Assembly: GCA_008632985.1 (NCBI GenBank)
Contig: QPGO01000019.1
Coordinates: 558,001-622,000 of the forward strand
Length of the DNA: 64,000 bases
Reading direction: 5' to 3'
From: Psammoneis japonica
Lineage: Eukaryota
Shown: one piece after another, positions 5,331 through 64,000 of the stretch
Numbering within the stretch: the stretch's first letter is position 1
Layout: every line of letters starts with the position of its first letter
The notes under the pieces: generated by a model
Seen by the model: only the letters and a program-made list of their open reading frames with translations
Told to the model about the DNA's origin: nothing
Databases searched by the model: none
Position numbers and translations under genes: made by a program

Positions 5331-5399
5331 TGTCACTCTTTTAAGTCCAAAATTCAGAGTTAAAGAGCCTGTGCAGAGTGGAAGGGAACAGCAGAAGGA

Positions 5400-19344: not shown

Positions 19345-19566
19345 CCGCACAGCATTTGATGCAAATCCTTGCTTGATGTTGCTGCTGCTCCCAGAGCATC
19401 CACAACACTGCCACTTTTTCTTGACAACGTCAAGCTCCACATTCTTGTTTGGGTGCCAATGTCGTTGGCTTGTCCTTTGGAGGGAGTGCTCTAGAGTGCC
19501 GCTCAACAATTGTTTCGGCAGAGCACAGCCAGTGGCAGCAGTTTTTGTGCGCGTTGCTGCAACAGC

Positions 19567-41292: not shown

Positions 41293-41490
41293 AAGTTAAA
41301 GAAAACACCCTGAGATGGACAATTCCAAAAATGTATGTAAAAAATGTGAGAAAAGTGGGCTCCATGAATAATTTTGGAAAAAATTCGTTTTAATTCGAGT
41401 GATTAAGTTTGCATGACCATGGATGCCATTGAAGAAACACCCTGAGATGGAGAATTCTAAAAAATGTGTGTGTTTAAGAAAGCCATGTTG
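41293..41490. repeat. Two copies of a short repeat also present at ~39346-39425
   Basis: accctgagatgga(c/g)aatt motif at ~39358, ~41307 and ~41439. Confidence 0.75.
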
Positions 41491-41539
41491 CTGGGCAACA
41501 TGCATGAGTCCTGCTGATGTCTTCATGGCACGAGCCCAC

Positions 41540-42470: not shown

Positions 42471-43299
42471 GGGCACCCATGCTGAGATCATGAGCAGTCG
42501 AGTGACACAACAACTGCCACCACAACGGCGTGTTTTGGAACACAGGAGTGAACCGGCTCTCTGCCAAGGACCTCCACAAGCATTTTGACAACCCACAGCA
42601 CAACCACCTTGCAGAGATGAGCAACCTTGGGCACAACACTCTGCTCCAAATCAAGAAGAACAAGAGTGGAGAAGTTGTTTCCAAGCTCACTGTGCTTCTC
42701 ATGTCAAGCAGATTTTTGATGTCGTGGTGCAGCACCATCGCCAAATGTGTGGCCATCTTAAGCTGGCATGCACGTTTGACAACATTGAGAAAAAACAAAC
42801 TGTGGGGCAATGACAGTCAGTCAGCGCTGGTGCCTGGTGCCGCTGCACACCCTTGCTCGCAGGTGAGACTGTGAGCTGCATGATGGCTCACACCAAAAAA
42901 AGAACTCGAGCGAGCCAGAATTCTTGAAGAGGCAACGTGTCACGGAATGATGACGCAGTGGCAAATGCAAGTGCACGCAAGGGCGTGGCACTGCGCACCT
43001 CTCCCTTCTACAAGAATCAAAGCAACAAGCAAGAAGAAAGCCGCAAACACCACTGCAATGTGCCCTCTCATGGACAGACTTGTCTTGATGCCCTCATGCG
43101 CCAAGGCGGCAACTCTGCCTGCCAGAGTCCCACCGCTGCAAGCAGTCAAGAGGCCCGTGACTGTGCAATGGCTTCCAGGCTTCCGTGCAAAGAAGACACT
43201 GCACTTCCAGGGTCAACCCAGATGTCAGCACCAGCAGAGGTGTGAGCAGCACATTGTCGGAGTCCCAGCCATTGCGCAAGCATCTCTGCTGCCTCCCAA

Positions 43300-44760: not shown

Positions 44761-45599
44761 TCAATGGATTCTCAATGTGAAGCCTTCCCTTTTTTGCCCT
44801 CATCAGCTGTGTCCTGCAAGCAGTCTCCATCACACAAGGGCAATGTTGTCAGCACCAACGGATGACCAGCAGTGTCTGACTCCGCAAGCCAGTTGATCAG
44901 GATTGCATTGCGATCCACCTCATTTTGATTGATCTCAACATCAGAATGCAAGCACATCCTCAAAATGGCCCAATGCCATCTGGGTCCATTGCCGTGCAAT
45001 TGCCAGGTTGCTCTAAAAATTGGCCTCTGCACCGCATCTCTCTTTCTAGTCCGCCATTGCGGTCATCAGATCTTGTGTCTGTCCTGTGTCAGAAAACACG
45101 TTTTGACCATTGCAATGGTTCCACATGAATCACTTGTGTGCTGTGTTGTGTTCTGAACATGCCTTGTCTTTGAGTGTTCAAGAGAGGACATTCTCCTCAA
45201 AATCGCCACAAACTCTGACGTCAATTTACACACATCTTCAAGCATGTCTCTCGGATCTGGGAGCTTCTACAAATGTTTGATTCCTGACACAACTGGCTTG
45301 TCATCTGTGCACTCTACGGAGAAAATTCGTGACCACAACTTTCCAAGATTTCAAATCTCTTGGCACGGGATCAATTTTCCCTCAATTTTTCTTTCCGTTC
45401 ATCAAAATGTTGACCTGGCTGCTCTGTGCAGCTCTCGGACTTGCAGAGCTTTGCAAATCTGATTCTGATCATGCAAAGCGATCCCTCTGATTTACTCCAA
45501 CTTTCTGGCAGAATTTCTGTGGCATTTTGTGCCAAATTTCTCATCCAAAAACCTCATTTCTCTCTCACAAAACTTTGGTTTTGTCTTTTGTACTTGCCT

Positions 45600-48500
45600 T
45601 TCAAGTCTGCTCATTGTCTCCCATCTTGCCATGGCTGCCAACATCCTTGCCGCCATTGAACACAGAAAAGCTTTGCCTGTCAAGCATTGTTCGCAGTCGG
45701 ATGTGCAAGCCGAGTTTGCTCTCAACCAGTCAAAGCTGGTCCTCTGCCGTGACACCACCAATGCTGTTCTTGCTGACCATGTCCATGGTCAGTTTGATCA
45801 GTTTCTTGTGTTCTGCAAAGGCTGCATTGTCCCCGTTACAAAGCCCATCCCCTTCATCAAGGATGGCAACCAAGTCAAGTTCCTTTTGAACTTTTCCAAC
45901 ACTGTTGGGGAAGTTGCTTCCATGTCAGATGCTCACCAATGTGTTCAAGGACACTTTGTGACTCTTGCACATCATGCAGACATTGTCACGTTCAACTTGC
46001 CTTGAACTGAGACTCCTCCGGATGATGTCAAAGGTCCACTGCTTGTGGATGGTGCTCAAGACCCGGCATCTCTCGAACGCCTCCACTTTGGAAATCCCAC
46101 TGCTCAGGACAAACAACTGGTTGTTGCTGCTCTTCCAGTGGCCTTCTCTGCCCCCCCCTCCCAGGCTGCTCCCACAGGCTGCTCCCATCCCTTGGATTTC
46201 ATTCCCGGTGGAAATTGCCCCACAACGGTGGCCAACTTTCCTGCAGTTGACATGTGGCAGAAAGGCATTGGTGCTTGCATCCAACAGCACAATGCCAACT
46301 GCTCTCTCAATGAAGGTGGACCTCTTTTTGACCAAGCTGCTGATGGTCTCCAAGTTGTTGACGACTTCATTGGTCTTAACATTTTTCCACTTTAACAACA
46401 ACAATTTTCTGGTGGTTGCACCTTTCTTGGACAGCTGCTGTCATGTCCAAACTGCCATCAAGACATTTTCTGATGTGACCTGGCAGGCATTGGGGGCCAC
46501 AATTCTGATGGGCCAGCCTGCTTGTCTCAGAAATGGTGCTCAAGCTCTTGGCGCCACTGCTCAAGCTCCCATTGCTGTCCAAGTTGAGGCTCCCAAATCC
46601 AAGAAGGACAAGGACCTCAAGAAGAGGGCCAGTGATGTCCAGGCTCATTTTTTGTTGACATTTTGCCACAAGGTGGTTGGATCTGATGCTGTTGCTCTTG
46701 GCCAGCTCAAGCAAGTCTTCATCAAGGCTCTTCAAGAGTCGAACAACACAGAATGGGCTCGCCTGATCAAAGAGATCATTGCTGCTGCTCTCAATGGTGT
46801 CAAAACCATGAACATCTTCAACCAAGCAGTTGCTCTTTGCCCAGCTTGTGTCAACAAAGGCCTTTGCTGATGGCATCTGTGGCTTCAAGTTCACAGATGC
46901 ACCACCAAACACATCTGTGATGATCTTTTTATCCAAGATCAACATGCCCAACTTCCTTGCTCCTTTTGTGGACACCTTGGAACATGCCAAGATTGTCAAA
47001 GAAAGGCAGGAGTTCAGCAACCACTCTGTGAACACTTGCTCCAAGACTGTGACCACTGAGTCAATCAAGAATCCACCTTGCATGCTCATGGTTGTGCTCA
47101 AGACTCATTGGACATTGTTGCAGCTTGGAGCAACTTCAGGCTTAACTTCAATGACACCTTCATTTGGCAGCAGCTTGCCCGTCCTTTTTCCATCACCTTT
47201 GGCAAGATCAGGAAGCAGTGGATCACAAGCAATGACAACACCCATGAAATCACTGTGAACATGCCAAACAACATCCAAGCCATTGTCCGCACCTTTGCCC
47301 AGCTCGGCAGCATTCTCCAATGCCATGAGGTGATTCACACTTTGCAAGACATCAGCATGATTTGCACTTTGAAAGACATCAGCATCAGGGCTCTTGACAT
47401 CTCCAAGCATCTGACAAACCAATCCATCCAGGATTTGGAGACCAATGTTGGTCATGGTCCTTCTGGATCCTTTGGAAGCAAGTGTGTGCTCTGCCAGCTT
47501 GGTGAGAAGTCTAACTCTACCTTGACAACAGCTGAACATGCACCAGATTCTCCTGCCACTGCTGCTTCTCCAGATGAGAAGCTCAAGTCTCCTCTGACCA
47601 CATCAGCAGATGAACTCAAGGTCCGCAAGAAGCCCAGCCATCTCTGGAAATCCTTGTCAGCCACCTGTTGTCCCCATCTTGGCAAAGAAGGGCCCCAAAT
47701 CAAAAACCAAGGAATGTCTGTGCTCCCATTTTATGATTCGTGGGTCCAGTTTTGCACCAGTGCCAGGTGCAGCAAGCCTCACATCACAAATTTACACAGC
47801 CTTCCCAAGGCAAAGCGCAAAGAGTTGATTGACTTCATTGAAAAGTCTGACACTCTTTCCTTTGCCAAAGGGAAAGGTCCCAGTGGTGCGTCTTCTTAGT
47901 TTTGTCATCTGACAAACCAGGGCATTTGTTTGTTGATGTGCATCAATGGCGCTCACACATTTTGACTTTGGGTTTTTTGACCTTGTGCAACCAGCAGCCA
48001 GCAAGAATTGTGGACTCTGCAACAGCTCACACAAGCAGCACACCTGGTGCCTCTCGTCCTGCAGGCACTGATGCGTTCATGGAGGATGATGTTGCCCCTC
48101 CTCTTGTGGGTGGTGACCTCAAGAATGCTTCCAAGTCTCTGGGGTTGGTGGCTCAGGATGTTCCTTGCACTGCACCAGTTTCCTCCAAAGATGTCAAGGA
48201 GTTTTACCCAGTCTTGTCTCCAATGATGGCATCAGGGCATCATCCTGTTCCCATTTCCACAATTGACAACTCTGTGAAAAAAGCTGAGCGAGAAGAGTTC
48301 ATTTGCACTCATCTTTCTGACCGGGTCCGGTCTCAACTGGAAAACCCATTTGGAAAGGACAATGTTCATCAACTGTTTGCCTCAGAGGCTGCTTTTTGCC
48401 ATGTGTTTCTGTCCCTTTGGAAGTCTGGTTTGTTGTCTCCCAGCACTGATGGAAAGAGCTCTTTTGTGCCCCCCAAGGGATGCATCAGGAATTGGGATGA

Positions 48501-51500
48501 CCTTTGTTGTGTGTCCCCAGATGTGTGATGTCTTCATGATCTCCTTCAGGATTGCAAAAATGTCAATTTCAATGCTTTGGAGGGTCGTCCTTAAGGCTGG
48601 GAAGGTGAAACAGAACTCAACCAAGATCACATTGCCCAAACTGCAGCAGGGACACCACTGCACTTTGATGGTAATTTGGCATCATTGGTCAGATGGGTCA
48701 GTGGCCCACTTGTCAGAGTGCATTGGCATGTTTGTCAAATCATCTCCTTTTTGAAGGGGAAGGTGGACCCACAGGTCACACTGACTCTGCAACACATGTG
48801 TCCAGTGGATGGAGTTCTGGCCTGCTGTGATGACCACAACACTGAAGAAACCTTCCAAGCCTGCTTTGGCCATGTGAATCATCTGTCACTTGACTTGGAC
48901 CCAGAGAAAATGCACAAGATGCCAGTCAAGGATTCCAAGAGAGGATTCGTCCTTGTTTTTGACAAAGGCATTGTTCTTCACATGCTCAATTGTCATTTGT
49001 CATCCCAGAGCTTGGTTGACATCAACAAACAATTCAAGAACCCATGTGCAGCATCCGACAGCACATTTCGGCCATTCCTGCATCCACGGCTGTCAACATT
49101 TTTTTGTTGCTTGAATTTGAACCCCCTTGCAGCAGTGCCACAGCCAAGATGGATGTCATTCACTGGATGTGCAACATGCAGGTCTCCAGTCCAACCAAGG
49201 ACATTTGCCCAGTGAGTGATGATGCCACGGGGGCTCACCGAATGATGAGGCATTGCCCTGACCTTGTGGTGATGCATGTTTCAGTTCAGTGTGGATGTGG
49301 CATTGCTCAGATTGGCTGCAACTTCAGAGACACTCCCAACCCCTGCAATTGGGATGGGGGCTGGTCTCAGAGTCATCAGCAGTTGGCACTTGACATGCCT
49401 TCCACATTCTGAATGTTGTCAAGATCATGCAGCCTTTCCTGCCAGAGTTTGAATTTCTGGCACCTCCCATGGAAGATGATGTCTCTTTGTTTGCCCAAGC
49501 TCTGCCAGACTCTTTAAACCCAGGGCTTCTTCAAGATGGCTTGTGTGCATTTCACCAACCTTCAAGCATCATGTCAATGATGACTTGCATGCCAACATCT
49601 AAGACGTTTTACTCCAGACAGTCTGTGTGAGTTCCTTTGCCATCTGTGTCATTCAAGGTTTTCCTCAGGCTGAAGTTCCGAATGCTTTGAGCTTGGAGAA
49701 GCTCAATCTACTTCTCCATTGGATTTGGAAGCTTCTCGGGTGGTTGTGTGATGCCAAGACCTTGACAGTCAGCATGCCTGAGCATGAACACAATGAGCTC
49801 TTGGTGGTCCTCCTTGACTGGATGGCCAAAGTGGACTGGCTTCTTGGGGATGCATCTTCTTTGTTGGGGACCTTCAAGAAGAATCACACTCGATGCTGTC
49901 CTTGAGCTCATTGTTGGTCTTTTCAACTTCAGAACAAACTTTTGGTAGAATCTGATTGCCAGGCATTGCGTCACCCAATGCATGTTTGACAGGTTTGGTT
50001 GTCAAGACCAAATTTTGGACCAACTTCCTCAAAACTCTTCTGCCGTTTGGAACCTGTTGTTGCCAAAGAAAAAGCCCAGCTCATGTGTCACACCTCCAAA
50101 TCAGAACAATGATTTCAAAGCTGCTTTGGTGGTCTCCACAGTTCACCCTCAATCATGTTGAGTCAACTCCCAACCCTTGGGAGGCCAAGATTGGAACTGC
50201 CATCCCATGCAATCCCCACTGTCAAGGGATTGGTGATGCCAGCGGTCTTGGTGGTGGCAGATGCTGCTGAGAATTTCAGTTTTGGCTTTTGTGCTTTGGG
50301 GTCCTGAAATTCAAAGAGAGCCCCAGCTGTGGTTGGACTCTCCAGACCATGTCATGATCAACATTTGTTGGAATTTGTCATTTCCATTCCTGTCTTGGCT
50401 GGTGTTGTTGCCTTTGTGGAGTCCATTGATGAACCACACCAGTCCCTGAACCGTTCTCGGCTCTCTTCTCCCATGATGTTGTTCCAGAGAACTTGGTTGT
50501 CAGGATGCAGACCAACAACATTGCTGGCAATGGTTGGCAAAACAGATGTGCTGCAAGCTCTCTCCAAGGCCAGCAGCTGTCATTAATTTGGTGTGCACTC
50601 TGTGTTCGTGCTTGGCTCGGTCTCAATTCTGGAGGTGTTCACTGGTCTGGTGACTGAATGCAACTGGCTGATGATGTGTCTCCACCATCTGACCCTCACC
50701 TGTCTCATTCTGTTTGTGTTGACCTTTTCCCTCCCAAGTCAAGAGCTGAGAGCTGCCACAACCACTTTACTCTCATCTGTTCTCCAAGTTGCCACTGGTC
50801 CCTGCAGAGACCCTGCAGCACTCAGGACAGCTTGCACGAGATGCGTCCATTGTTTCAAATTCACCAAGGATGTGAAATGGGATGTGGACAACCTGGAGAT
50901 GCTTGTGGAAAAGCTCCCAGAGTGTTGTTGCCAACTGCAACTTGCCATGCATGCTGTGCATGTTGCAGAGGTCAGTTCTGTTTTTTGTGAGCAACTTAAA
51001 GTGGGCTCTACATTTGACTGTGCAAGAGACGTTGCATCATTCATCAAGTTGTTCAGATGCTGCTGTGACTGTTGCCATGATCACCCAACAGATGCAAAGT
51101 TGGGAAAGTTGTTCCAAGATGCCAAGAAGGAACTCCAGCAACATGACAAAGCTCCAAGATGCTGCAAAGGATTTGGTGGTGAGATGCTCCAAGAATCAAA
51201 AGTTTGTGCAAATGCTGTCTGTGCTTCCAACCCTGACAGGGTGCTCTGTGCTGTTGCTGATTGGTGCCAAGCATGCCTGTTTTGTGGTGCCCATCTCCAG
51301 GAATGGGCACAGACAAAGAGCAGATCTGACCCGGCTTGTCTGGCAATCAACGAACTGGGTGGCACCCACACTCAGCATCTCAATGATGTCCCACCAATTG
51401 AACTGATGACCACTGCTGGTGTCTCAAAGGTGCTGACATTTTGTCAGTTCTGGTCTCCTCTGTTGCCAAGATGTGGGTCCAATGATGTGCTCAGAAAAAT

Positions 51501-51950
51501 GAGAAAGACGGCGAGGAAAAACTCTTCACCTTGAACCTCTGGCAAGGTGGTCTTCACTTGGTCAAACCAATGTGCCACATCATTGAATGGTTTGTTCGCA
51601 TTTGTGCAGCCGATGACACCACCACCCCACTGTCCATTTCCAAAGCAGCTGGGGGCAAGGCAAAGCTTGTCACTTTGATGGAAATCAAGAACAACATGTG
51701 CAAGGTTCTTGCCTCAAAAGTCTGTCACCTTCACTGTGCAAAAGAAGAGAAGGCGCTTTCACACTGGCATGCTAATTCTCTTCAGGTTGGAGCTTGCATG
51801 ATGCTCTGCCAGATGAACTTCAGTGGGCAGTCCATCTGATGGCTGTTGCAATGGAGGTCCATGGCATGGCACACCTCAGGAACTCTGCTGTCTTGGCAGA
51901 TCACCAATGCAGAGCTCTTGACCACTCTGCGCCCATGCCTCACCTCTTGC
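45600..51950 (+). mobile_element. Degenerate tyrosine-recombinase retrotransposon (DIRS order)
   Basis: Gag-like frames ending in a Cys/His finger (to 47899); RT remnants (VKDSKRGF, DDATGAHR); RNase H (GIGDASGLGGG); recombinase C-terminus HANSLQVGAC..I.WLLQWRS (from HSLRxGA..RWxS). Confidence 0.8.
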
Positions 51951-52239
51951 AAATTTTGATTTTTTTAAAATTTCTAAAATGTGTTTTGTTTCATGCACTG
52001 TGTGCTTTGCATTTGTTCCACCATGTCCAATCTGAACAACAGCAGTTGGCCTTTGGTCGTGTTTCTTTTTGACACCACTCTTTGCAGCGGCCCTCACTTT
52101 GTGCCGAACTTGTCATCCTCCTTGCATGGATGCCTTTCTTCTTCTGCAGCATGCTTTCCACTTTGGGTTCATGCTCTCTGCTCATTGCCTGATCTTGGGC
52201 TTCAAGCTGTGGTTTAAATTCCTTTTTTTCTGGCTGGCT

Positions 52240-52965
52240 GTGGTGCCTCTGATGACATGGGTGTGCACACTGCACTTCGCACAATGCTGCGTGCAGCCAG
52301 ATGGCATGTTCGCACAGTGTTGGGGAACAAAATGGATGGAACCAGATCTGCAAATTTGTTCCCTGTTTTCCTGGCCACTGTCTCAGCAGCACCACACAAG
52401 TGCACATGCTTGTGTGCATGTTTCCACATTGGACATGTTTGTGCATTCATTGTTGCGGCCATTCAGCAAAGCCAGCGCTGCATCATGTCATCGATGTTGC
52501 AGCCAAGCCGAAGTGGTGGCAGGAAATCTGTGATTCTTGGCACCAAGACGGTGGGCCCAGCACAAGGAGAGAACACCTTGTGGGTGGCCATGCTCTTGGC
52601 AGAGTCACCACGCAAGCGACAGCAGCACGCAGCAGGAGGCAGACAGCCAGACGATGACGAGAGGCTGCCCCAGCTCCCATCATTGTGTTTGGTGGACTGC
52701 CGGTGATGATGGGATCAGAGGATGAGTGGACCCAACATGGGCCGGCAATGCTGAAAAATTCCCACCCTGCCCAGCCCTCTGTTCACACAGTGTTGGGGAA
52801 CAAAATGGACAGCACCAAATTCGAAGATTTGTTCCCTGTTTTCCCAGCTGAGCTGTCTCAGCAGCACCACACGAACACATGCTCGTGTGTGTTTCTATAC
52901 ATTAGATGCATCCGTGCATCGATTGTTGCGGCCATTTGGTAGCTTGCACTGTGTCATGTCATCGG
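52240..52965 (-). repeat. Right arm of the modular inverted repeat
   Basis: Reverse-complement similarity to 41540-42470, with two internal subunits (~52310-52495, ~52780-52965). Confidence 0.8.
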
Positions 52966-53247
52966 GATAGGGCCTCTAGTAGCTAGAGCCAAGCCAGGCT
53001 CTCTCTACTCTGTAAAGTAGCTAGCAGTAGAGTAGAGAGAGCGGGAATCTGCGATTCTTCTCCGAATTCATTGTATGTCACATACCAGTACCGTACATAC
53101 ATATGGCAGACAATTACCGTACTGATGACGTGTCACGATCTGGCATCAGCGCAGGCGAGCACGCTAGCCCTATGTACCATACGCCGCTGAGCGCTCTGAG
53201 CACACAAAAAGCACGATGCCACCACGCTCAGTTTATTTCGACCGACC

Positions 53248-54762
53248 ATGACAATTACACCCACGACGGCAAAAATGAGAATGACGAATAACAAGAAGCA
53301 AGAGAATGAGAAAAGTCTCTCGGGTTGTCCCTACTCGACAAGTGTATCGAATTCATCCTCCAAGGACTATTCAACACTTCTTCAGGAGTGCCCGGCGTTT
53401 CAGAAGAACTCGGGTTGCCCCTTCAAGAACTCGACGTCTCCTAAAGAGATTCAGCAAGAGCTTTTGAAGGTACCACCGTCTCACTTGGAATCCAAGGAAA
53501 GTCCCTTTCACAAGGCACTGGAGCAGCTGCATAAAGTGGCAACTACAGCGGAACCGGCCTCGCAATTCGAACTGATGGGCGGGTGTCCCATGCAAACATA
53601 CCATCCTGACCAAGACGTTCCGTTTACACAAGCGCTCGAAGAGTGGTCCCTAGCATCCATCATGGCAAAGATGGCTAACGATCTGGAAAAGAACTTGGAA
53701 GATAGTGACGAAGAAAACAATCATGATATTGTGAATAAGCGGAGTATAATAATGTCGGAAGAGTCGTCTCATGTGCCCGTCTCTTCCCCTCGTTCTGAAA
53801 AGGTTAGTTTGGCTCATGCTCTCAAGACTGGCACAGCCAGTGCACACGAGGCTGCTGAAGACGTTCACTTTGTACGCAACTTTATTCGAGGTGATATTGA
53901 TCGGGACTTGTATCGAGAGTTGGTGATGGATTTGTACTTTGTCTATCAGGCACTTGAGGATGCACTAGACAAGCACGCACCGACATATTTCGGCTCTTGT
54001 CACTTTCCAAACGAGTTGGAACGTACACCAGCCTTGTTGGAGGATGTTGATTTCTGGCATGGATCGACAGATTTGCCATCCATGAGTGAGGCGACTCGCG
54101 ATTATGTGGACCGTATTCGCGTCCTGGCGGACACGGAACCGCTCTTGCTGTTGTCTCATGCTTATACACGTTATCTGGGTGACTTGAGCGGTGGCAAGGT
54201 TTTGGCACGTGTAGCACGCAGGTCACTACATCTTGACAGAAAGGAAAAGGACGGTCTTGCCTTTTATCACTTTGATAACATTTCGAGTGCCAAACTCTTC
54301 AAGGACAAGTATCGTCAAGCGTTGGATGATTTGCCGCTCGACAAATCACAAGTGTCGGCGCTCGTCAAGGAAGCTAACATTGCCTTTCTATTGAATATGC
54401 GAATTTTTCAAGAATTGGATGTCAAGGCTGGTATTCAACCCAGACTACCACCGCTGGAAGAGTCACTGGCGGCGTTTATGCAAGACGGAACGACAAGTTC
54501 TGCGACTTCCGAAGCGGAGTGTCCGTTTGCAAACAAGCGCAGCAGTAACATTGACGTCAAGGTCCCACCAAATAATGAATGTCCCTTTGCCAAGACAGAT
54601 GTAGCCTCAACCGTACTAAAACCAAAAGGAAAGTGTCCGTGGCCCTTTATTTTGGCGCACGACCCGCAAGAGGGCTTGCGCCAATGGCAGACATGGCTGG
54701 TGTTGGGTGCGATTCTTTGTTGGTCTTGGTCCCGCTTTGTTGCCAACTATGTACAGAATTGA
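53248..54762 (+). CDS. Heme oxygenase with multiple Cys-Pro motifs and C-terminal membrane anchor
   Basis: LKTGTASAHEAAE (proximal His) and HAYTRYLGDLSGG (distal helix); hydrophobic C-terminus. The start may be a nearby downstream ATG. Confidence 0.92.
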   Translation: MTITPTTAKMRMTNNKKQENEKSLSGCPYSTSVSNSSSKDYSTLLQECPAFQKNSGCPFKNSTSPKEIQQELLKVPPSHLESKESPFHKALEQLHKVATTAEPASQFELMGGCPMQTYHPDQDVPFTQALEEWSLASIMAKMANDLEKNLEDSDEENNHDIVNKRSIIMSEESSHVPVSSPRSEKVSLAHALKTGTASAHEAAEDVHFVRNFIRGDIDRDLYRELVMDLYFVYQALEDALDKHAPTYFGSCHFPNELERTPALLEDVDFWHGSTDLPSMSEATRDYVDRIRVLADTEPLLLLSHAYTRYLGDLSGGKVLARVARRSLHLDRKEKDGLAFYHFDNISSAKLFKDKYRQALDDLPLDKSQVSALVKEANIAFLLNMRIFQELDVKAGIQPRLPPLEESLAAFMQDGTTSSATSEAECPFANKRSSNIDVKVPPNNECPFAKTDVASTVLKPKGKCPWPFILAHDPQEGLRQWQTWLVLGAILCWSWSRFVANYVQN

Positions 54763-55370
54763 ATTTATTTTAGAAATAGCTTCTTGCAAGGATCACTGTT
54801 TAGCATGAGGCCGCAGAGTAATTCTTTTTGTCACATTCGGACTTGATTTCACAAGCGACCTGACCGAACTTGCGTATAAATAAAAGTTACAGTGGTAATT
54901 TCTCCTCAGTTTCGAAGGTACGCTCAAGCACACTGATCTGATCCTCCCGATTTAGATACTCTGATGACCGTGATATATTGTTCTCGAAACTGAATACCCA
55001 TTCTTGTTGGCGACAAATCGCAATCACTTACATTTAAAGTGTTTGCACTGATGTTCACAGCAATCGGCAGCGCTGCCACAATGCGGGCTTTCTATTGCTG
55101 TGCGACACACGGTCGCATCGACGCATAAGCTTGCCTTTTTATTCCACTGGCAAAATTCTTCTTCTTGAACGCACTTTTGCGCATCAGATTGACCTAAGCA
55201 ACTTTGGCCGACAGTGGACGAAGACGTCCCGTAAGGAATAGGGTGGGCGTCACACTAGAGATTCGGGAGCTGTTCTGCAAGGTTCGCCTGGTAGGCGATT
55301 CAATCGGAGAAAATGTTGGACTGGTGGATGGCATTTTGGTTGGGTGTGAGCTGGGATGAAAGAAAAGAGT

Positions 55371-58300
55371 CTAAGATGGAAAAGATGTCGCCTCAGGATT
55401 TGAGCTGGGAAAACTGCTCGGGGTAGAGGTAGGATGATTGGTCGGAGCGATACTCGGGGCTGTCGTTGGGCTGGACGATGGGGCGTCACTCGGCGATGAT
55501 CTGGGTACCATTGGAGAAATTGAGGGACTAAAAGATGGATAGCGACTGGAAAAGGGGCTTGGCTGTGTTGTAAGTTCAGCTGTTGGCGCGAAAGATGGAC
55601 GATGGCTTAGGAACATGTTGGGTGGTGTACTTGGGGCAAAGGAAGGGCTACTGGACGGAGAGTAATGACCAACGGATGGACTGTTGGATGGAAAGAGACT
55701 TGTTGGTGGAATTGAGGGCAAAGGTTTGAAGGTTGGGGCGTCACTCGGTTCGGCTGAAAGATCATCTGCTGTTGGTACATCACTAGGAACCCTACTCGGG
55801 ACTGTAGGTGGAGCAGTTGAGGATACCGTTGAGGGCATTACAGATGGCACATTGCTTGGTTCGAATGATGGCAATTTCGAAGGTACATCACTCTGGGCTA
55901 TACTTGGTACCGATGATGGAGCAAAGGATGGTACGGCTGAAGGTGTAGAGTATGGCACATTGCTTGGTTCGAATGATGGCGTTGTCGAAGGCATATCACT
56001 CGGAGATAAAGTTGGCACTACTGGCGGAGCAAAGGAAGGTACCGCTGAAGGTTTCAAGGATGGCACATCACTGGGTTTGGACAATGGTATTGTGGAAGGC
56101 ACATCGCTCGGAGCTACACTTGGCACTGCTGAAAGAGTAACGAAAGTTACGGCTGAAGGTGTCAAAGATGGCACGTCGCTGGTTTCGGACGATGGTATTA
56201 CCGGTATGGAAGGCACATCACTCGGAGCTAAACTTGGTACTGATGTTGGATCAAAGGAAGGTACGGCTGAAGGTGTCGAGGATGGCACATTGCTTGGTTC
56301 AAATGATGGCGTTGTCGAAGGCATATCACTCGGAGATACACTTGGCACTACTGACGGAGCAAAGGAAAGTACCGCTGAAGGTTTCAAGGATGGCACATCA
56401 CTGGGTTTGGACAATGGTATTGTGGAAGGCACATCACTCGGAGGTGCACTTGGCACTGCTGAAGGAGCAACGGAAGGTAAATCGCTGGGTTCAGACGACT
56501 GAGTTGTCGAAGGTACATCACTCGGGGCTGCACTTGGCACTGCCGATGGAGCAACGGAAGGTACTTCCGAAGGCGTCAAGGATGGTACATTGCTGTCACT
56601 CGGAGCGACACTTGGTGCTGCTGAAGGGATAGAGCCGACAATATCGTCCACCGATATGAAGTCAAAGGTGACCGCACCATCAGGTTCGAATTTGATATTT
56701 GTAATTGTGTGACCGGTTTCATATATGTTTCCATTTTGATAGGAATCCGTGTTCGGATAGAGACGATTGCCACATAACTCTCCACAACCTGTTGATGGAC
56801 CAAGGCTCAAGTTGTTTTGTCCATCCCACACATCTCCACCGTCTCCGCGGTTTCGGTTCCGCTCTAAGTCATAGTTTCCGTCCGCTTGTAGAACTGCGAC
56901 ACGGTAATGGTTTCCGTTTTCTGGCCAACCCGACTGAAATGGATGTCCTTCGGCTCTGTGACCAACTCGCGGCCGGCCCCCTTTACTGTCATCGATTTTG
57001 AATACAATGAGGCCGGATTTGGGAAGCCTTCCATCAAAGCCAATCGCTTGCCGATTTTCAATAAACAGATACTCTTTTTCTGGATATCCTAAGTCAACCC
57101 TGTAATACTCACTGAAAGAAAATGAAGGCCTTAAGTTGACTCCACGTTGATAGGAATTCAACGGCTTCACGTTGGCCCACCCCAGCATATTTTTACACCA
57201 GGGATCGAGCGACGGGGGATAGAGCATGGACCCTTCGAAACCCCAGACATTCCCCATGGTACTGAACGATCCGATTCCCTGCCCTCCACCGTCTAGGTCG
57301 TAAAGGTCTGGAAGACCAAATAGATGCGATATCTCATGTACCAATGTACCAATTCTCAGTATAGAATCGCCCCTGATGTCCCAAAATGCTGGCACGATAA
57401 CAAAATTCTGAACTATTGTCCCATCACTTGAAGTCCATCCATTAGATGGGAGCCACCATTGAAATGAAAAAATACGATCTGCGTTACTGGCTCCATAAGC
57501 ATCCGTTCCACCATGTTCTGCACCATAGCCAGAGTGAATAACGGTCAACAACTCAATAACGCCGTCTCCATCGTTGTCGAACTCCGCAAAATTGAATCCT
57601 GTTCTGTCCAACTGTTTCATTGCATGTTTTATCACTTTCCTTATCTTTTGTGACCGACCACTTCTTCCGTTTGCAGTAAATGCCTCGGTGTAGTTCAAAG
57701 CTACCCATGGTACAACAGTGCTGTTGAGGTCGATGCGGCCTCCGCTGTTTGTTGAAAAGTAGTCCCTGACACTCCCTGTTGGACTCAACTCATCGTGTGG
57801 CAGGTCGCTGTTTAGCAACGTCCCAAAGTCTTCTGTGCTTGGTCGATTCGTTCGTTCAATGTGATCTGAAAAAATTACTGGGACCACCAAGTTCTTCACT
57901 TCAATTTTTTCATGGGTGAGATCCCCCTGGTGTTTGTCTTGTTTTTGCTGAACAAGGTTGAGTGCTGTTGGAGGTCCCTTTTCGCAAAACTCTCCACATT
58001 CCAATCTGATGATATCCGGTGATGCGTGCTCTCCTTTTCTAATACCTGCACTTTCTGGGTCTGTTTTGCCTACAGGTAGCTCGTGCAAGATTTTCAGCTC
58101 ACCGTTGGAGGATTGTTTACAATAAAACCAGTTGTTAGTCTCCCGCGGAATGAGCGATTCGTCAGTTATAGTGCCATTGTAAGAATCAAGCTTCTGTGGT
58201 GGTTTCACACTTTTTTCAGGAGCCACAGTGTAGCCATTTTCATCTTCGAACCAGTAGTAGGCGGCATTTCCTCGAATGAACAACTTTCCTGTGGACGAGC

Positions 58301-58406
58301 CGTCAGATTGTATTTCTGTAAAGGACGCCGGCGAAGCCGTAATGTCGGCAACAGTAAGAACAGGAAAGATACAGAGAAGCAGATAAAGAAGTCTCCTCTT
58401 GTTCAT
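55371..58406 (-). CDS. Secreted M6-family (immune inhibitor A-like) metalloprotease with long Pro/Ser/Thr repeat stalk
   Basis: Signal peptide from ATG at 58406; FDNDGDG, HSGYGAE, IGTLVHEISHLFGLPDLYD, EYLFIENRQ; PSxVPS repeats. Confidence 0.9.
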   Translation of the reverse strand: MNKRRLLYLLLCIFPVLTVADITASPASFTEIQSDGSSTGKLFIRGNAAYYWFEDENGYTVAPEKSVKPPQKLDSYNGTITDESLIPRETNNWFYCKQSSNGELKILHELPVGKTDPESAGIRKGEHASPDIIRLECGEFCEKGPPTALNLVQQKQDKHQGDLTHEKIEVKNLVVPVIFSDHIERTNRPSTEDFGTLLNSDLPHDELSPTGSVRDYFSTNSGGRIDLNSTVVPWVALNYTEAFTANGRSGRSQKIRKVIKHAMKQLDRTGFNFAEFDNDGDGVIELLTVIHSGYGAEHGGTDAYGASNADRIFSFQWWLPSNGWTSSDGTIVQNFVIVPAFWDIRGDSILRIGTLVHEISHLFGLPDLYDLDGGGQGIGSFSTMGNVWGFEGSMLYPPSLDPWCKNMLGWANVKPLNSYQRGVNLRPSFSFSEYYRVDLGYPEKEYLFIENRQAIGFDGRLPKSGLIVFKIDDSKGGRPRVGHRAEGHPFQSGWPENGNHYRVAVLQADGNYDLERNRNRGDGGDVWDGQNNLSLGPSTGCGELCGNRLYPNTDSYQNGNIYETGHTITNIKFEPDGAVTFDFISVDDIVGSIPSAAPSVAPSDSNVPSLTPSEVPSVAPSAVPSAAPSDVPSTTQSSEPSDLPSVAPSAVPSAPPSDVPSTIPLSKPSDVPSLKPSAVLSFAPSVVPSVSPSDMPSTTPSFEPSNVPSSTPSAVPSFDPTSVPSLAPSDVPSIPVIPSSETSDVPSLTPSAVTFVTLSAVPSVAPSDVPSTIPLSKPSDVPSLKPSAVPSFAPPVVPTLSPSDMPSTTPSFEPSNVPYSTPSAVPSFAPSSVPSIAQSDVPSKLPSFEPSNVPSVMPSTVSSTAPPTVPSRVPSDVPTADDLSAEPSDAPTFKPLPSIPPTSLFPSNSPSVGHYSPSSSPSFAPSTPPNMFLSHRPSFAPTAELTTQPSPFSSRYPSFSPSISPMVPRSSPSDAPSSSPTTAPSIAPTNHPTSTPSSFPSSNPEATSFPS

Positions 58407-59982
58407 TCTAAACACACTAAACAAACGCAATGGCCTCCTTACTTGACTTTGTGAGAAAAAGAAAAGGGAGGTTTTCTCCTTTCCTCAATTTGAAATTTCA
58501 ACTTGTATGTGGGTTCGTGCTTCCGCGACCTAGAAATATTCATGGATATTAATATCGGGGGATTTAATATTGTTAGTTATAAGTTTATCAATGACATATA
58601 TTGTAAAATAATACTATAGGAATTATTCACCATTACATTTTTTGTATATTATAATGCTATGAATAAAGAAAGAAAAGCAAAAAATCCAACACAAGGATGA
58701 TTCCTGTTCATGTTGATGTTCCTTGTTTCTTTCAGATCGGTGCATGTTGCATTTTCAATTTGGAGCCCAGAGAGGCTTCCTGCTCGACAGTAGATTCGAA
58801 AGGCACGTGATAATTCCAACAGTAGCTATCCGGGTAAGTGCATGGTGCAGCGGGGTTTCTTTCCATTCTGAATCGAAATTGACGGCATGAGAAAATTCGT
58901 CCCTACCGACGACAACGGCGGTGGGGTTGGGATCCATGATGAGTAAGTACGGAGGAGAGAGGGATCACCATGGGTTCAAGGTGTCCATGGGCGGACAATA
59001 GTCCTCGCTTTTTCTCGCACGTCTCGATGGTCATGACGTCAAGTGCCATGTGTTTGGACGGTAATACGGCATCAATGGACAGGAGCAGTATTCCGGCAAA
59101 AACGCTTCAGCGAGCGCTCTTGATCACAAGTTCAAAGTCACAAAACGGACACGATCCCCAAATTGTTGCAACTGAGACTCCTCCAAACAATGTGAGTGCT
59201 CAGTTTGGAAGGTTTGAGTGCCGCTCGTGTTTGGAAAATCCTTTTTTGCCCACCCTCTGCATGGAAAGCAATGACGGAACGGAGCGAATATGTATCCACC
59301 AGCGACAGCGGCGAATCTTTGATTTTGTATATTCTTATCCGGAGAATTCTGCTCTCGTAGAAAAAGAAGAGAATGTAGTGATCTTTGAACCCTCAAGCCT
59401 TTCCCGTACTGCATACCAAGAAGACAATCACTGAGGGCGATCAGCAGGACTAGACTTGTTGCTTTGAGCGAGAAGAATGACAACATTGGTAGACCAAGTT
59501 GATCTGCATGTCTTCTTGCGAAAGAGCAAGTAAACTTGTACAACACGAGGTGTTTTACAAGTGCCTTGACAGTAATTTAAAAGAAGAACTTATACGGCAT
59601 TAGATTCTCAAACTACTACATCTCCCCGAGCAGTTAGCGACCGTGACTGACTGTCGTCACAGGTTAGGTCTCGTTTACAAGGCCATCATCATGTGTTTCG
59701 TTGTTGGGCAGCTTTCATATGCAGCGATCTGCGCTCCTCGTACTGTAAGGGACTCAACTGCAAACACTCTGGTCATGGATCTGACCAGAACTCCTTCCTC
59801 TACGGGCAAGTCGCAATCCCTACTTTTTCTCTGCCTGCACAACAACAAAAAAAATGGAACTAGAACACTTGCTTTCAATGGACATAAGAAGCACAGTACT
59901 GCAGCATCTTTCCTTCATCATCGTGGGACCTGCCGACCTTAAGCTTCTCTTATCCAGCCTTCAGTAGTTCTGGACAATACAG

Positions 59983-60654
59983 CTATTGGTCACTACTGCC
60001 CAGAAAGTTCATGGTTCTCTTTTCCCATGCCTTTGGTTTGTCCTTGAATTTTTCAATACGTTTCGACTGTATAGGTAATGACTGGCAAAAATCCTCCACG
60101 ACCTTGCTTTTGACGGACCAATACACGAGGGAAAAGGGTCCGTAAAGTGTTCCAAAATATATGGGATTATTCAGTATTTCCACGTTGGCATGAAGAGCTT
60201 CAAACGCCGAGATTACAAACAAGAACCCAAACGAAATCAAGACTGCACAAAAGGGGTATGCAGGAGCCAATTTGAGGGTGGACATTGCTACCCGTAAGGC
60301 AAAATCAGCCTTGTGCAACGTGCCCTTTGCGACTCGTTGACAGTCAAAGTACAGGCAAAAAACGTAAGCTGTACCGACAAACATTATTTTTGGGACACGA
60401 CGAATCCACGCCAGTATTCGATACTCTAGCACTCGAAGATTACTTATAACGTCGTGGACGTTGAAGAAACCATAGAGTCGCTCCAACAAGTTGACGGTCA
60501 CGACAATCACCAACGCAATTCGTATGATTCTGGATCGAATAAAGAGACGTCTCAACCCAGGTAAACCCTTTTCTCCACGAGACGAGGAAGAATATAGCAG
60601 ATACTCTGTGGCCACATAGGTAAGGAAGAGGGAATTGACAATTTCGGCCATCAT
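59983..60654 (-). CDS. Hypothetical multi-pass membrane protein
   Basis: 223 aa ATG-initiated ORF with several hydrophobic segments and normal TA content. Confidence 0.7.
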   Translation of the reverse strand: MMAEIVNSLFLTYVATEYLLYSSSSRGEKGLPGLRRLFIRSRIIRIALVIVVTVNLLERLYGFFNVHDVISNLRVLEYRILAWIRRVPKIMFVGTAYVFCLYFDCQRVAKGTLHKADFALRVAMSTLKLAPAYPFCAVLISFGFLFVISAFEALHANVEILNNPIYFGTLYGPFSLVYWSVKSKVVEDFCQSLPIQSKRIEKFKDKPKAWEKRTMNFLGSSDQ

Positions 60655-60729
60655 GGTACAGGTTGTGTTGTCTTTAGTCTTTAGGCTGTATCTCTCAATC
60701 GGCTACCGGGCGGTGTTACTTTGTTTTTT

Positions 60730-62490
60730 CATCATCGTCTTGCAGTCTGTCACTGCGGACGGAGAATGGACCATGCCACGGCATGTCGTGCGTGCGTGCC
60801 GTGCGTGCTGTGCGCACGCATGATGCAAAGTTTGCAGTTTGCAAAGAAGTTTGTGGGCAAGATTTTTCTAACAAGCCATTTTGCAAAACGCAGCTTGTCA
60901 GCTGCGAAGCAGCAAACACCCAGCAAACACCTGGGAGTTGCCGGAAATGACGAAATTTTCATTTTTCCTTGTTTTTGTCTGCGTTTTCGAACACCACTGT
61001 CTTTGGAATTTTTGGCGCAGTCGACTTTGCAGAAGTTTGAGTTTTCAGCATTTTTTGCTCAGAAAAATGCAACAGATCTCATTTTGTGATTGGCCAGGTT
61101 TTTTGTTGAATTCCACCAAGGTTTGCACCACACAGGTGGCTTGTGTGGCACAGCGGGGGTGCGCCTTTGCCCCAGCTTGCTTCAGCTCTAAAAACTTCGA
61201 TTTGAGGCATTCACGATGAGCAGCTGTCTTGGGTTGCTTGAGGCTGGAAAAAGCAGTGAGACTGGCTTCAGTTTGTTTCTCAGCTTGCTTGTGGGTGGTT
61301 TCCATCTTGCCAAAGATGGTCCCTCCCCTTCTGGTGTGCTCTGCGCCTCCCCCCACCCCTGCCTCTGTGCTGCTTTTGCTCTTCAGCACAGCCTGTGTCT
61401 TCTTCGTCTTTGACCTCACATTTTGAGATGTTGCAAAATGGCGCCCCTCCAGAGTTTCAAATGGTTTTTTGTGACTGCACATGTGAGTGACACACGCGCA
61501 AGAAGTGTCTTTGTTCTTCTTGCAGCAGCAGCCTGGCCCCTCTGGTGTTTGTTCTGCTGCAAACCACATGGTCATTGAATCACCACCCTGCACTTGCTCA
61601 ATATTTTTTCAAATTAATCAGCACAATGCATTGCAGCCAATGAATTCCCATCAATTTGTGTTGATCACAGTTTTCCCCTCTGTTTTGATTGCAGCACACA
61701 ACTTGCTGCTGCCGCCGCCACCACCACACTGGGGCACAACACAAACCGGCCGGCGCCTTGATGCACAATTTGGTTGACATGGCCTGGGCTCACTTTCCCA
61801 AGCCACAGCATTGCCAATGGGCTCACGACTCATGCACATCATGTGGCCAGCTGGGCACACATCTGCCATCTCGGGCGAATGCCTCCCCCCCTCTGACCTG
61901 GCTCTGCTGCACCTGCACACACCTCCTCTCGGACAAAAAACCATTTGTGTGCATCTGGTGCATCAGGTGGCAGCAGCACAGTTTCTGGTGCCTCTGGTGT
62001 GTCCCCTGTTGACACAGTGAACAAAGCAAATGCATTTGCCAATGACGCCAATCATGTCAAAGAATGCAGGCCCCCCCTGGCCCACACAAAGCCAGCGGCA
62101 AGATGGAGATCTCTCCAAAGAAGACGACAATGAAGCCATTCATTTTGAAATGTGTCATGGTGACAACTCATTCCAGATGTCAGTTTCCGATGAAGATCAT
62201 TCGACACCACCAGTGCCCTCTTGGAGAATGAATGTGGACGCACCATGCAGTCAGATGGTGTTGGTTGGTGCAGTGCGTGCGACGATGATCAGTCCTTCCG
62301 TCTGTCGTTGGGAAATCCGCGACCACGAACGCCCGCCTTGCACAAACCAACGCGAGCCCCGATCGATAGCCACGCACCCCGCGCAAGCACGCCGCAAGCA
62401 CGCCGCACGCCGCACCACTCGAAGATCGACGAGTGCATGCAGGATCTGCATGATGCGATCGTTGTTGTCCATCGCGTCGCTTCTTGTGTC
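60730..62490. other. Small TA-depleted island, unclassified (possible transposon remnant)
   Basis: Abrupt loss of TpA between two intact genes; no recognisable domain or terminal repeat. Confidence 0.6.
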
Positions 62491-62550
62491 ACCTATCGTT
62501 GTCACTGTTACTGTCATTAGAGCGTAAAAGTAAGGCGCAGAAGATTCTAA

Positions 62551-63252
62551 ATGGCAGCTTACGTCTTGTACTGTTGGACGAGCACGTCAATGACTTCAGT
62601 TCTGAGTCACGCCTCGACAAGGAGATGTACCTTCGCCACCGTGCTGTCCCGCGCAGAAACTCTCACGACGCAATCAAAAGCTCCTACTCCAAAAAGTGAC
62701 GACAAGTTGAAGACTGGTACGAGCATAGGCGTTGTGACTCATGACCAAATTCGAAGAGCCAACAATAAGTATCGAGACCGAATAGAAATTCGTTCAGGTG
62801 GGAAGGGATGGGGACTTTTTGCCTTTGATGATTTTCAACCGCATCAATTGTTGATGAAGAGTCGCTCTCTATCCAAAAGTCCAACCCGAACCTTGCATTC
62901 TATCCAAACGAATTGGACGACACATGTCGAAATGGATTTGCCAGCTATCCTGATAAATCATGCCTGTGGGCCGTCCGCAGCCAATGTGTATGTCAAACCA
63001 AATGATTGGGGTGCGTACGACTTTTTTGCCATGAGGCTCATCAAAGATGGCGAGGAACTGCTGTTTGACTATGAAACGGTTGAAAGTGACATGACCAACA
63101 CGGGATTTACGTGCTCCTGTCATTCTCGAGATTGTCGAGGTAAACTGAAGGGATATCTACTTAATGCTGAGCTGATTCGAGATCAATACGGAGCGGGGGG
63201 TTGGAAGAAGTACGTTGCGCCATATCTCCTACAGGGAGGGCAACAAAAATAA
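62551..63252 (+). CDS. Small SET-domain methyltransferase with post-SET Cys cluster
   Basis: GKGWGLFA, INHACGP, GEELLFDYE, FTCSCHSRDCRG. Confidence 0.9.
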   Translation: MAAYVLYCWTSTSMTSVLSHASTRRCTFATVLSRAETLTTQSKAPTPKSDDKLKTGTSIGVVTHDQIRRANNKYRDRIEIRSGGKGWGLFAFDDFQPHQLLMKSRSLSKSPTRTLHSIQTNWTTHVEMDLPAILINHACGPSAANVYVKPNDWGAYDFFAMRLIKDGEELLFDYETVESDMTNTGFTCSCHSRDCRGKLKGYLLNAELIRDQYGAGGWKKYVAPYLLQGGQQK

Positions 63253-64000
63253 ACGCAATACTTTAGAGATTTTATCGTCTTTTGTACAATGCAGTACTGT
63301 ACATCCAATCCAGTTCATCCATTCGAGATTGATGCATTTTTTGAACACCATCAGAAATAATGGTACTTCAAGCGTTGATGAAGAGTGAAAGCCCAGACAA
63401 GCTATTGAAAAGACGTCGTAACCCGCCACTTCTTTGGTTTCTATTAAGTTTGTGAGAAACTAGCCTTTGAGAGATGTCTTGTAACTCAAATCGCTTCCTA
63501 ATCCTCCGTGAAACCAACTCACCAAAAGAAAAAGCTGCAGCGTAGTACTTGTCGTCTGTCCACGTCCTTCGTCTCGGTGCTTCAATTTATGAATAATGCG
63601 TGCGTTGGTCGTTGCCGACTGGCAGCCAATTTCCCAATACATCACAAATTGGCACGCGGCTGAAGGTTCCCGAGATAATGTCAAATCCACCGAGATCAAG
63701 TCGTAATCTCAGCGAGGCGTTGCCCCCACCTGCACAAGCTCGTTGTCGATGCACTCAAAACTGGCTTGGATGCCTTGGCGAGGCTTGTCGACACACTGAA
63801 AAACATATCTCCTGATCTTTGAACTTGTGTTGAATAAAATGTAATAATCGATGCTTAGCTTTTGCTGACGAAACCTTCCCGTACCGGAGACCCAATGCGA
63901 TTTTCAATTTATACCAAGGTTAGCCAACGGGGATGGCAGGATATACGTAGGGTTCGTTGTGGTACCGCAGCTTCTCGCTAGCACACATATATTCCTGCAC

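Follow-up and report, generated by a model that had tools for sequence, protein, structure and literature searches.

What might explain why a stretch of diatom DNA has lost almost every TA but at its edges has kept its CG? The closest described precedent comes from the chlorarachniophyte Bigelowiella natans, in which mutation-accumulation lines reveal a TpA>TpG/CpA hypermutation of integrated giant virus and virophage DNA (Mettrop et al., bioRxiv 10.64898/2026.01.13.699255). In that study the changes are almost only A>G and T>C, all of them at TpA, and are confined to integrated foreign DNA; 124 TpA-poor clusters are counted, TpA-poor genes are enriched in reverse-transcriptase and DDE domains, and an ADAT2-like candidate enzyme is proposed (bioRxiv 10.64898/2026.01.13.699255). 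Here we describe a comparable depletion in 64,000 nucleotides of the diatom Psammoneis japonica (GenBank assembly GCA_008632985.1, contig QPGO01000019.1, positions 558,001 to 622,000 of the forward strand; this whole stretch is called the window, and all positions are counted within it). Our subject is a TpA-free block at 60718-62493 between two divergent genes, and the element that calibrates its interpretation is a Copia long terminal repeat (LTR) element of the window, Copia-1.

The likeness to B. natans lies in TpA-specific A:T>G:C changes and in clusters within mobile DNA that are poor in TpA and rich in CpA+TpG. Unlike in B. natans, the host is a diatom, hence a stramenopile, and the targets are transposon blocks, the Copia LTR element among them. 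Depletion is near saturation, with an observed/expected ratio (o/e) of ~0.05 compared with the Rho of 0.45 that the preprint gives for its viral region; CpG decay is superimposed on it; and the case is known from sequence rather than from mutation-accumulation lines. A hierarchy of 3' neighbours and the independence of the strands can be read here, unlike in the preprint's main text, where the words 'trinucleotide', 'context' and 'flanking' do not occur. A literature search, covering full text and two diatom transposon papers, returned no report of TpA loss in diatoms.

Two better-known processes invite comparison. In fungi, repeat-induced point mutation (RIP) changes C to T at CpA, creating TpA, and can leak into flanking single-copy DNA. 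The diatom case resembles RIP as an in-place, transition-only, dinucleotide-specific hypermutation of transposon DNA that would serve genome defence, and RIP leakage is an analogue of the spread into host flanks proposed in a preliminary description of this DNA. Unlike in RIP, TpA is destroyed and most C>T and G>A changes are found at CpG (7 of 10 and 18 of 24, respectively). Nor is a repeat dependence evident: the block is mostly single-copy at ≥88% identity, and tandem repeats at 37.2-38.8 kb keep a TA o/e of 0.59. We reject RIP because TpA is removed, not created. The decay of CpG through 5-methylcytosine yields the same products, TpG and CpA, and is present in the cores of all blocks, but its substrate dinucleotide and base change are different, its zone is narrower, and it has gone less far in Copia-1, where 12 of 24 CGN Arg codons are lost. 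CpG decay accounts for the composition of the cores alone and is rejected as the full cause because it cannot remove TA, and the block margins and Copia-1 keep CG without TA.

Composition of the TA-poor blocks

A dinucleotide profile in 500-bp windows shows gene-dense stretches alternating with four blocks of odd composition. Two-state segmentation with a hidden Markov model (HMM) called the following segments.

1709-10430, 13687-28805, 41476-52895 and 60718-62493, with a short segment at 11862-12499 within a gene: TA-poor
1826-9279, 18053-28518 and 43185-52455: CG-poor

In the four TA-poor blocks TA o/e is 0.05-0.09 and TG+CA o/e is 1.6-2.0, compared with 0.61 and 1.20 in the host DNA of the window, and TG and CA are about equal in every block. 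TA density is 4.6 per kb in the blocks and 45 per kb in the host. The TA-poor zone is wider than the CG-poor zone in all four blocks, which agrees with the preliminary description in making TA loss the broader of the two. The blocks are devoid of TAA and TAG stops and contain long open frames in all six frames; most of the 74 open reading frames (ORFs) of at least 150 amino acids in the window lie within them, and automatic callers would over-predict genes there.

The block at 60718-62493 has five TAs (60869, 61189, 61602, 61615 and 62367), compared with 102.7 expected from its base composition (o/e 0.05). Its parts, none of which is assigned a strand, are as follows.

60718-62493: TpA-free block between two divergent genes, an HMM segment of 1776 bp
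60718-60830: left margin, 0 TA; 11 CG, o/e 1.26; TG+CA o/e 1.83
60787-60820: (CGTG)n-like run, six GTGC and then two GCAC; (CGTG) x6.5 in Tandem Repeats Finder
60831-62275: core, TA o/e 0.04; CG o/e 0.36; TG+CA o/e 1.76
62276-62493: right margin, 1 TA; 31 CG, o/e 1.53; GC 62%; TG+CA o/e 1.27

CG o/e steps sharply at 60820 and 62276, from 0.36 to more than 1.2, and the TG+CA value of the right margin is host-like, without excess. These are the edges that had been described as abundant in CG and devoid of TA; the stretch 62300-62480, singled out for the same composition, is enclosed in the right margin with its 31 CGs and the lone TA at 62367. Just outside the block there are five TAs in 61 bp to the left and six in 57 bp to the right, and the TA contexts within 200 bp are a normal mix, with RTAY:YTAR ratios (R, purine; Y, pyrimidine) of 5:2 and 2:2, respectively. 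Within the (CGTG)n-like run GCGTGC occurs at 60790, 60794 and 60803 on the plus strand and at 60814 on the minus strand; in or at the right margin, which also has tandem 11-mer and 7-mer repeats at 62382-62415, it occurs at 62275 (plus) and at 62387, 62398 and 62405 (minus). Eight of the 33 copies of this hexamer in the window fall in the two margins, in a mirror-like order. However, sharing of 6-mers and 7-mers between the margins is raised equally in direct and inverted orientation (6-mers: P 0.046 and 0.012), so these motifs fit a terminal inverted repeat (TIR) and a split microsatellite alike.

Searches for TIRs, LTRs, target-site duplications (TSDs) and Pfam families gave no mobile-element hallmark in this block. 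No Pfam family was found in two of its ORFs at E up to 0.001, and none that was credible in 20 ORFs at E up to 1 (best match 0.077); by our estimate, ORFs of 168-187 amino acids are expected by chance in TA-free DNA. The block gave no blastn match to the remaining window. In purine/pyrimidine-coded blastn the best real match was 89 bits, whereas the reversed/complemented null reached 102 bits, and a transition-tolerant Smith-Waterman comparison of the margins with other island ends gave a lone match of z ~5 in low-complexity, TG-rich sequence. The left margin scores 31.5 against the reverse complement of the right (null 23.4 ± 3.2, maximum 36.5) and 36 against it in direct orientation (null 25.7 ± 3.4, maximum 42), neither of which is significant. 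A 7-bp direct repeat, TGTTACT, at 60714 and 62507 was found by eye and rejected, with a chance expectation of about one in ten. In the source reads the block is mostly single-copy at ≥88% identity, the other blocks being multi-copy, and a short piece of the core near 60889-60997 occurs elsewhere in the genome (read contigs). A single X1 read contig (8828 nt) spans 56406-64000, across the block, and is the sole contig of that run covering 61910-61911, where it has TG and the window has CA; this swap could fit two haplotypes converted on different strands from TA (or CG), or an assembly difference.

Direction, timing and context of TA loss in Copia-1

The direction of change can be read from an element whose relatives are known and whose two ends were once the same.

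13292-19344, minus strand: Copia-1, the calibrating element, with RVT_2 and gag-pre-integrase domains
13292-13647 and 18987-19344, minus strand: the LTRs of Copia-1, with a perfect 5-bp TSD, CCGCA, at 13287-13291 and 19345-19349

The polyprotein frame of Copia-1 (14324-17671) has 5 Tyr among 1116 residues (0.4%), compared with ~3.3% in its homologues, and its Cys and His are raised. We aligned it to 20 homologues (P0121-P0140) out of the 120 listed and took as a conserved Tyr column any with Tyr in at least 70%. At the 23 columns of this kind Copia-1 has His (10), Cys (9), Tyr (2) or Ser (2), and the catalytic YVDD of the reverse transcriptase reads CVDD. Copia-1 differs at 147 of 577 conserved columns, and 107 of these differences are explained by one unambiguous base change: A>G 29 (27 after T), T>C 16 (15 before A), G>A 24 (18 after C), C>T 10 (7 before G), and 28 transversions. 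The contexts of these changes show that TA was turned into TG and CA, beside ordinary CpG decay. The 27 of 29 A>G changes after T, the 15 of 16 T>C changes before A and the replacement of Tyr by His or Cys at 19 of 23 columns constitute the B. natans-type context. Both strands are about equally affected (Y>C 9, Y>H 10), and strand-coordinated runs of Y>H or Y>C along Copia-1 are not significant (8 runs among 19 events, with ~10.5 expected).

The same signature can be found outside the window. Among the 120 homologous Copia proteins listed, 118 have a normal Tyr content. The two others are P0123 (NCBI, 47-kb contig), with His or Cys at 17 of 25 conserved Tyr columns and an active site of HVDD, and P0131 (ENA, 66-kb contig), with His or Cys at 16 of 29 and an active site of CVDD. 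The shared replacement of Tyr by His and Cys points to the same mutator in at least two further public records.

The LTRs supply the timing. They differ at 34 columns of 364, and the differences include 7 of TA versus TG/CA, 6 of CG versus TG/CA, 6 of TG versus CA and ~3 that are complex. LTRs flanked by a TSD were identical at insertion, so differences at TA-type sites must have arisen after insertion, in integrated DNA. The left LTR, with a gene beside it, has a host-like TA o/e of 0.58; the value is 0.32 for the right LTR, which adjoins an old block, and 0.08 for the interior. The host-like left LTR indicates that Copia-1 was not TA-poor when it landed. All seven single TA-type differences retain TA in the left LTR (binomial p 0.016), which nevertheless is without RTAY sites (0 of 17). 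The two sides of the insertion site, 12800-13291 and 19345-20000, were contiguous beforehand; their TA o/e is ~0.3 and ~0.2, and CG o/e goes from a normal 0.95 on the gene side down to 0.42 on the island side. TA-poor sides with falling CG suggest that Copia-1 inserted into the graded margin of an older block.

The TAs that survive reveal a context rule. Among the 166 in the blocks, 90 are YTAR (TTAA, CTAA/TTAG, CTAG), compared with 204 of 1172 in the host, and 9 are RTAY (ATAT, ATAC/GTAT, GTAC), compared with 359 of 1172. Relative to host density, survival works out at ~0.018 in RTAY sites, ~0.079 in sites of mixed context and ~0.32 in YTAR sites. The geometric mean of the RTAY and YTAR values is 0.075, close to the mixed value, which is what independent hits on the two strands would produce. 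All ten tetranucleotides agree with an additive per-strand model in which the 3' neighbour is preferred in the order T > C > G > A. The polarised events of Copia-1 rank the neighbours likewise (T 18, C 14, G 6, A 4); the nine TAs surviving in both of its LTRs are YTAR (5) or mixed (4), with no RTAY, and its TG-versus-CA sites are RTAY (3), mixed (2) and YTAR (1). GTAC is among the most convertible TA contexts: its density falls from 3.86 per kb in the host to 0.17 in the blocks, and that of GTGC+GCAC goes up from 6.9 to 15.1 per kb.

How does TA loss relate to CG loss? In all probability it is a separate process acting in place, as the preliminary description had argued, for it changes A:T to G:C at TpA, whereas CpG decay changes C:G to T:A. 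In 72 windows of 500 bp within the TA-poor blocks, TA o/e ranges from 0.00 to 0.30 and CG o/e from 0.04 to 0.93, with a Spearman rho of 0.21 (p 0.076); given so weak a correlation the two losses do not co-vary closely, let alone exactly. TA loss was also said to be the faster, and the conserved codons of Copia-1 bear this out for the interior of a young element: 21 of 23 Tyr codons have been lost, compared with 12 of 24 CGN Arg codons (Fisher p 0.003). The conserved Arg columns comprise 12 lost to Cys, His or Gln, 12 that retained CGN and 11 AGR. The interior (13652-18986) has a TA o/e of 0.08 and a CG o/e of 0.61, and thus keeps CG while poor in TA, as had been noted. Single-site differences between the LTRs are about equal for the TA type (7) and the CG type (6), and the ratio is therefore position-dependent. 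A more decayed relative had been reported to have lost both dinucleotides, which its composition confirms.

20407-21351, minus strand: the Copia remnant 'Copia-2', weakly recognisable as Copia (tblastn of P0121, E 1e-6); region with TA o/e 0.03-0.10 and CG o/e 0.12-0.22

The reverse uncoupling is also seen in the window. The stretch 37166-38768 is AT-rich and non-coding, with tandem repeats of 86-99% identity (37261-38131; others at 36903-37157 and 40834-41149); it is CG-poor (o/e ~0.5) and retains its TAs (o/e 0.59), which indicates that repetition alone does not attract the TpA mutator.

Where the targeted domain ends

The margins of the block are TA-free, but do they belong to an insert or to the host? 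The features on which this question turns are the flanking genes and the better-defined island 3.

59983-60654, minus strand: flanking host ORF without Pfam family, first ATG at 60654-60652, 63 bp from the TA-free zone
62551-63252, plus strand: flanking host SET-domain gene, ATG at 62551, 57 bp from the TA-free zone
41476-52895, no strand: island 3, an 11.4-kb TA-poor block in which only 43185-52455 is CG-poor

The two genes form a divergent pair. The inverted arms of island 3 (41751-42423 and 52219-52651) measure at least 670 bp and share ~75-81% identity, their differences being mostly transitions; an additional outer copy of an arm segment lies at 52780-52964. Read-contig depth indicates many genome copies. 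No Pfam family was found in the five ORFs tried. Its TA-free margins that keep CG fall within the inverted arms, so those margins belong to the element. TA loss in mobile DNA is seen in Copia-1, the Copia remnant and island 3, while the block at 60718-62493 lacks a mobile hallmark and its margins may be host.

We favour the view that the margins are most likely still inserted DNA. An element end can be fixed independently at two borders of the window, on the left of Copia-1 (the LTR with its TSD) and on the right of island 3, and at both TA loss stops at or inside the element. In Copia-1 the mutation grows weaker on approach to the left end. In island 3, on the right, the extra read-contig depth from other copies stops near 52937 and TA loss stops at 52895; the outer duplicate at 52780-52964 retains TAs from 52897 on, where the inner copy reads TG/CA.

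The strongest alternative is that of the preliminary description, in which the insert would be the CG-poor core only (~60820-62275) and the mutator domain would be wider than the insert. On this reading ~100 bp (left) and ~220 bp (right) of unmethylated host promoter would have been converted, including a GTAC patch turned into GTGC/GCAC, and conversion would end ~60 bp short of each start codon. Several observations weigh in its favour and against our own view. The distance from ATG to ATG is 1896 bp, and removal of the whole TA-free zone would leave 120 bp, whereas removal of the core would leave 440 bp; the other two divergent pairs in the window are spaced 536 and 563 bp. CG o/e in the margins (1.26 and 1.53) is higher than in margins internal to elements elsewhere (~0.5-0.6 in island 3, 0.61 in Copia-1), and its abrupt step exactly at the core junctions, 60820 and 62276, looks as if core and margins had separate histories. 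On the two sides of the core there is a direct similarity of 21 bp (60805-60826 and 62268-62288; rank 50 of 3188 windows) that could be a TSD of the core alone. The 60718-62493 block as a whole has no significant TIR, LTR or TSD, and its ends as an insert are not fixable. The left margin has undamaged CG together with a TG/CA excess like that of the islands. From run X2 there is a contig that begins at 62426, inside the TA-free zone, and continues into the SET gene. Measured from the ATG at 60654, the (CGTG)n run is 131-165 bp upstream, a distance similar to that at which a GTAC patch precedes the heme-oxygenase ATG, and GTAC is a highly convertible context. All three promoters abutting islands have 0-1 GTAC and 7-10 GTGC/GCAC, compared with 0-7 and 0-4 in the other seven. 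In the first 100 bp outside all borders the pooled RTAY:YTAR ratio is 4:15, compared with 318:178 beyond 400 bp (Fisher p 3e-4), which argues that a narrow, partly mutated fringe exists somewhere, though this fringe may still be element DNA. Our own account carries a further caveat, in that the context rule presumes that the elements started with host-like TA contexts.

Against conversion of host promoters stands, first, the behaviour of the two fixed borders, where the mutation fades towards the element ends without overshoot. The outer borders of the block are abrupt and have no graded zone. The right margin is without TG/CA excess (1.27 and 1.20 in the host) and has 34 CG per 300 bp, compared with 5-18 in the other promoters of the window. 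The similarity at the core junctions is of low complexity and nearly palindromic, and k-mer sharing between the margins is raised in both orientations. As for the stretch at 60787, said to be a converted form of the GTAC runs upstream of other genes, the (CGTG) x6.5 run is indeed there, but the GTAC-rich patches of host promoters (31762-31830, 53081-53125 and 63284-63310) are irregular and not (GTAC)n. Spread is therefore contradicted at the borders that can be resolved, and at 60718-62493 it is supported only by indirect arguments. Loss of TA over more than ~100 bp of host DNA is not demonstrable, and we regard spread at this block as a serious possibility, though the less probable outcome.

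Several host start codons have a GTAC patch 100-300 bp upstream, and five of the seven promoters not abutting a block have 2-7 GTAC per 300 bp, compared with 1.2 expected from the host average; the patch may be a promoter element of this diatom. Among 15 of the 20 joints of read contigs on 44001-64000, from three runs of one sample that may be the source of the window, none skips the block as an empty-site allele would; these contigs are not independent of the window, and the result does not prove that such an allele is absent. A metagenome scan for an orthologous locus, made with the SET protein, returned 102 pattern matches, of which none was confirmed; the collection scanned does not include this species.

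A second alternative dispenses with conversion at the margins. They would be GC-rich, microsatellite-like DNA of host or element origin, TA-poor by composition. Tandem repeats do make up much of both, the right margin has 62% GC with TG/CA at host level, and the expectation is low, 5.2 TAs on the left and 7.8 on the right by composition, or ~3 and ~5 if the host o/e of 0.61 is applied. TA-free windows of left-margin size (113 bp) exist in host DNA (444 of 25,653). However, only 9 of 25,023 host windows of right-margin size (218 bp) have at most one TA, and none of the 265 with GC ≥0.58 does. The TG/CA excess of the left margin is island-like, and both margins adjoin a TA-free core in a layout repeated at every block of the window. 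We consider this explanation improbable.

Could TA have been lost before integration, through editing of element RNA or cDNA in the style of ADAR or APOBEC? Animals are known to edit retroelements with deaminases, of which ADAR prefers a U ahead of the edited A; ADAR/APOBEC editing acts before integration and on a single strand. The diatom changes resemble it as a deaminase-type, context-dependent burst of transitions, and the Copia-1 interior is more affected than the LTRs, as editing might predict. Unlike such editing, however, they came after integration and on both strands. We rejected it on the LTR-specific TA-type differences, including six TG-versus-CA sites between LTRs once identical, the host-like TA o/e of the left LTR and the equality of the strands. 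TA is equally absent from island 3, which has long inverted arms and gives no reverse-transcriptase signal. Because the change occurred in place after insertion, editing is excluded as the main cause, and we give it very little credence. Selection against TA, through UpA-sensitive RNA decay or avoidance of stop codons, fares worst: TA is mildly scarce in host genes too (o/e 0.31-0.70), but the loss ruins conserved residues, including Tyr of the reverse-transcriptase active-site motif, which excludes selection, it extends to non-coding LTRs and frameless remnants, and Tyr content is normal in nearly all listed homologues.

The remaining features of the window bear on host composition and on the first block. 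The heme-oxygenase ORF (53200-54762) has as its best named relatives the diatoms Epithemia, Nitzschia, Cylindrotheca, Seminavis and Fistulifera, with 60-68% identity, which marks the host as a diatom and probably a pennate one. An armadillo-repeat (ARM) gene, ORF 9976-12588, has a TA o/e of 0.31 over 10072-12588; its repeat part, 11862-12499, consists of 129-bp tandem units ~78% identical, with 3 TA in 638 bp and normal CG. We rejected it as a case of spread because two genes distant from the blocks have a similar TA o/e (0.33 and 0.37) and its remaining TA contexts are host-like (RTAY 17, YTAR 11); its shortage of TA looks like a reflection of composition, not of the TpA mutator.

1709-10430, no strand: island 1, a TA-poor block in which only 1826-9279 is CG-poor

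Island 1 contains an inverted duplication (1928-3459 and 5574-7088; 70% identity over ~1.5 kb) whose arms have strong opposite GC and AT skews (GC skew ~ -0.4 and +0.4).

A putative TpA mutator and its consequences

The account that we propose would have the block at 60718-62493 be inserted transposon-type DNA in a diatom genome, struck by two independent mutation processes. The first would be a TpA-specific hypermutation that turns TpA into TpG or CpA (A>G on either strand), acting on integrated DNA, about equally on both strands, with the 3' preference TAT > TAC > TAG > TAA, and confined to sharply bounded domains in which it goes near saturation. The second would be ordinary CpG decay, presumably via cytosine methylation, that erodes only the inner part of each domain. 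The CG-rich, TA-free margins could then be viewed as the ends of the targeted domain, never methylated or only briefly so. Direction, di- and trinucleotide context, post-insertion timing, uncoupling from CpG loss and higher per-site completion can be read directly from the blocks and from Copia-1, whereas the definition of the domain and the assignment of the margins to the insert are what we infer. Taken as a whole, including margins that are not converted host DNA, we judge the account to be evenly balanced between right and wrong.

Which enzyme might be responsible? The leading idea, which we take from the B. natans preprint, is that a tRNA-adenosine-deaminase-like enzyme may deaminate adenine in DNA. 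The T-A target context would suit such an enzyme. In the tRNA substrates of TadA and ADAT2 the natural target, A34, follows an invariant U33, and the preference for a pyrimidine after A recalls the UAC of the TadA substrate, by analogy.

A more far-reaching version would be that diatoms carry a domain-targeted, TAY-preferring A>G DNA mutator, active on both strands, that erases TpA from silenced transposon domains and also from adjoining unmethylated promoters up to transcription starts and rewrites GTAC to GTGC/GCAC. We hold this to be doubtful. If true, promoters would evolve as a collateral effect, in a parallel to the leakage of RIP in fungi, and the defence would be common to the SAR lineages (Rhizaria and stramenopiles).

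The first report of a mutator that removes TpA from mobile DNA after integration dates only from 2026 and concerns a single chlorarachniophyte. The diatom case represents a saturated end-state and extends the phenomenon to a major algal group, with the LTRs and conserved residues of a Copia element supplying its direction, timing and strand behaviour. The per-strand rule TAT > TAC > TAG > TAA is a constraint that any candidate enzyme must reproduce. TpA and CpG loss differ in extent over the same domains, a difference by which the mutator's targeting could be distinguished from that of cytosine methylation. There are practical consequences as well: LTR divergence is unusable as a clock in such genomes, and TA-free DNA yields long spurious reading frames that mislead gene callers. 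If spread into promoters were true, the defence would in addition give rise to regulatory change in the genes beside the blocks.

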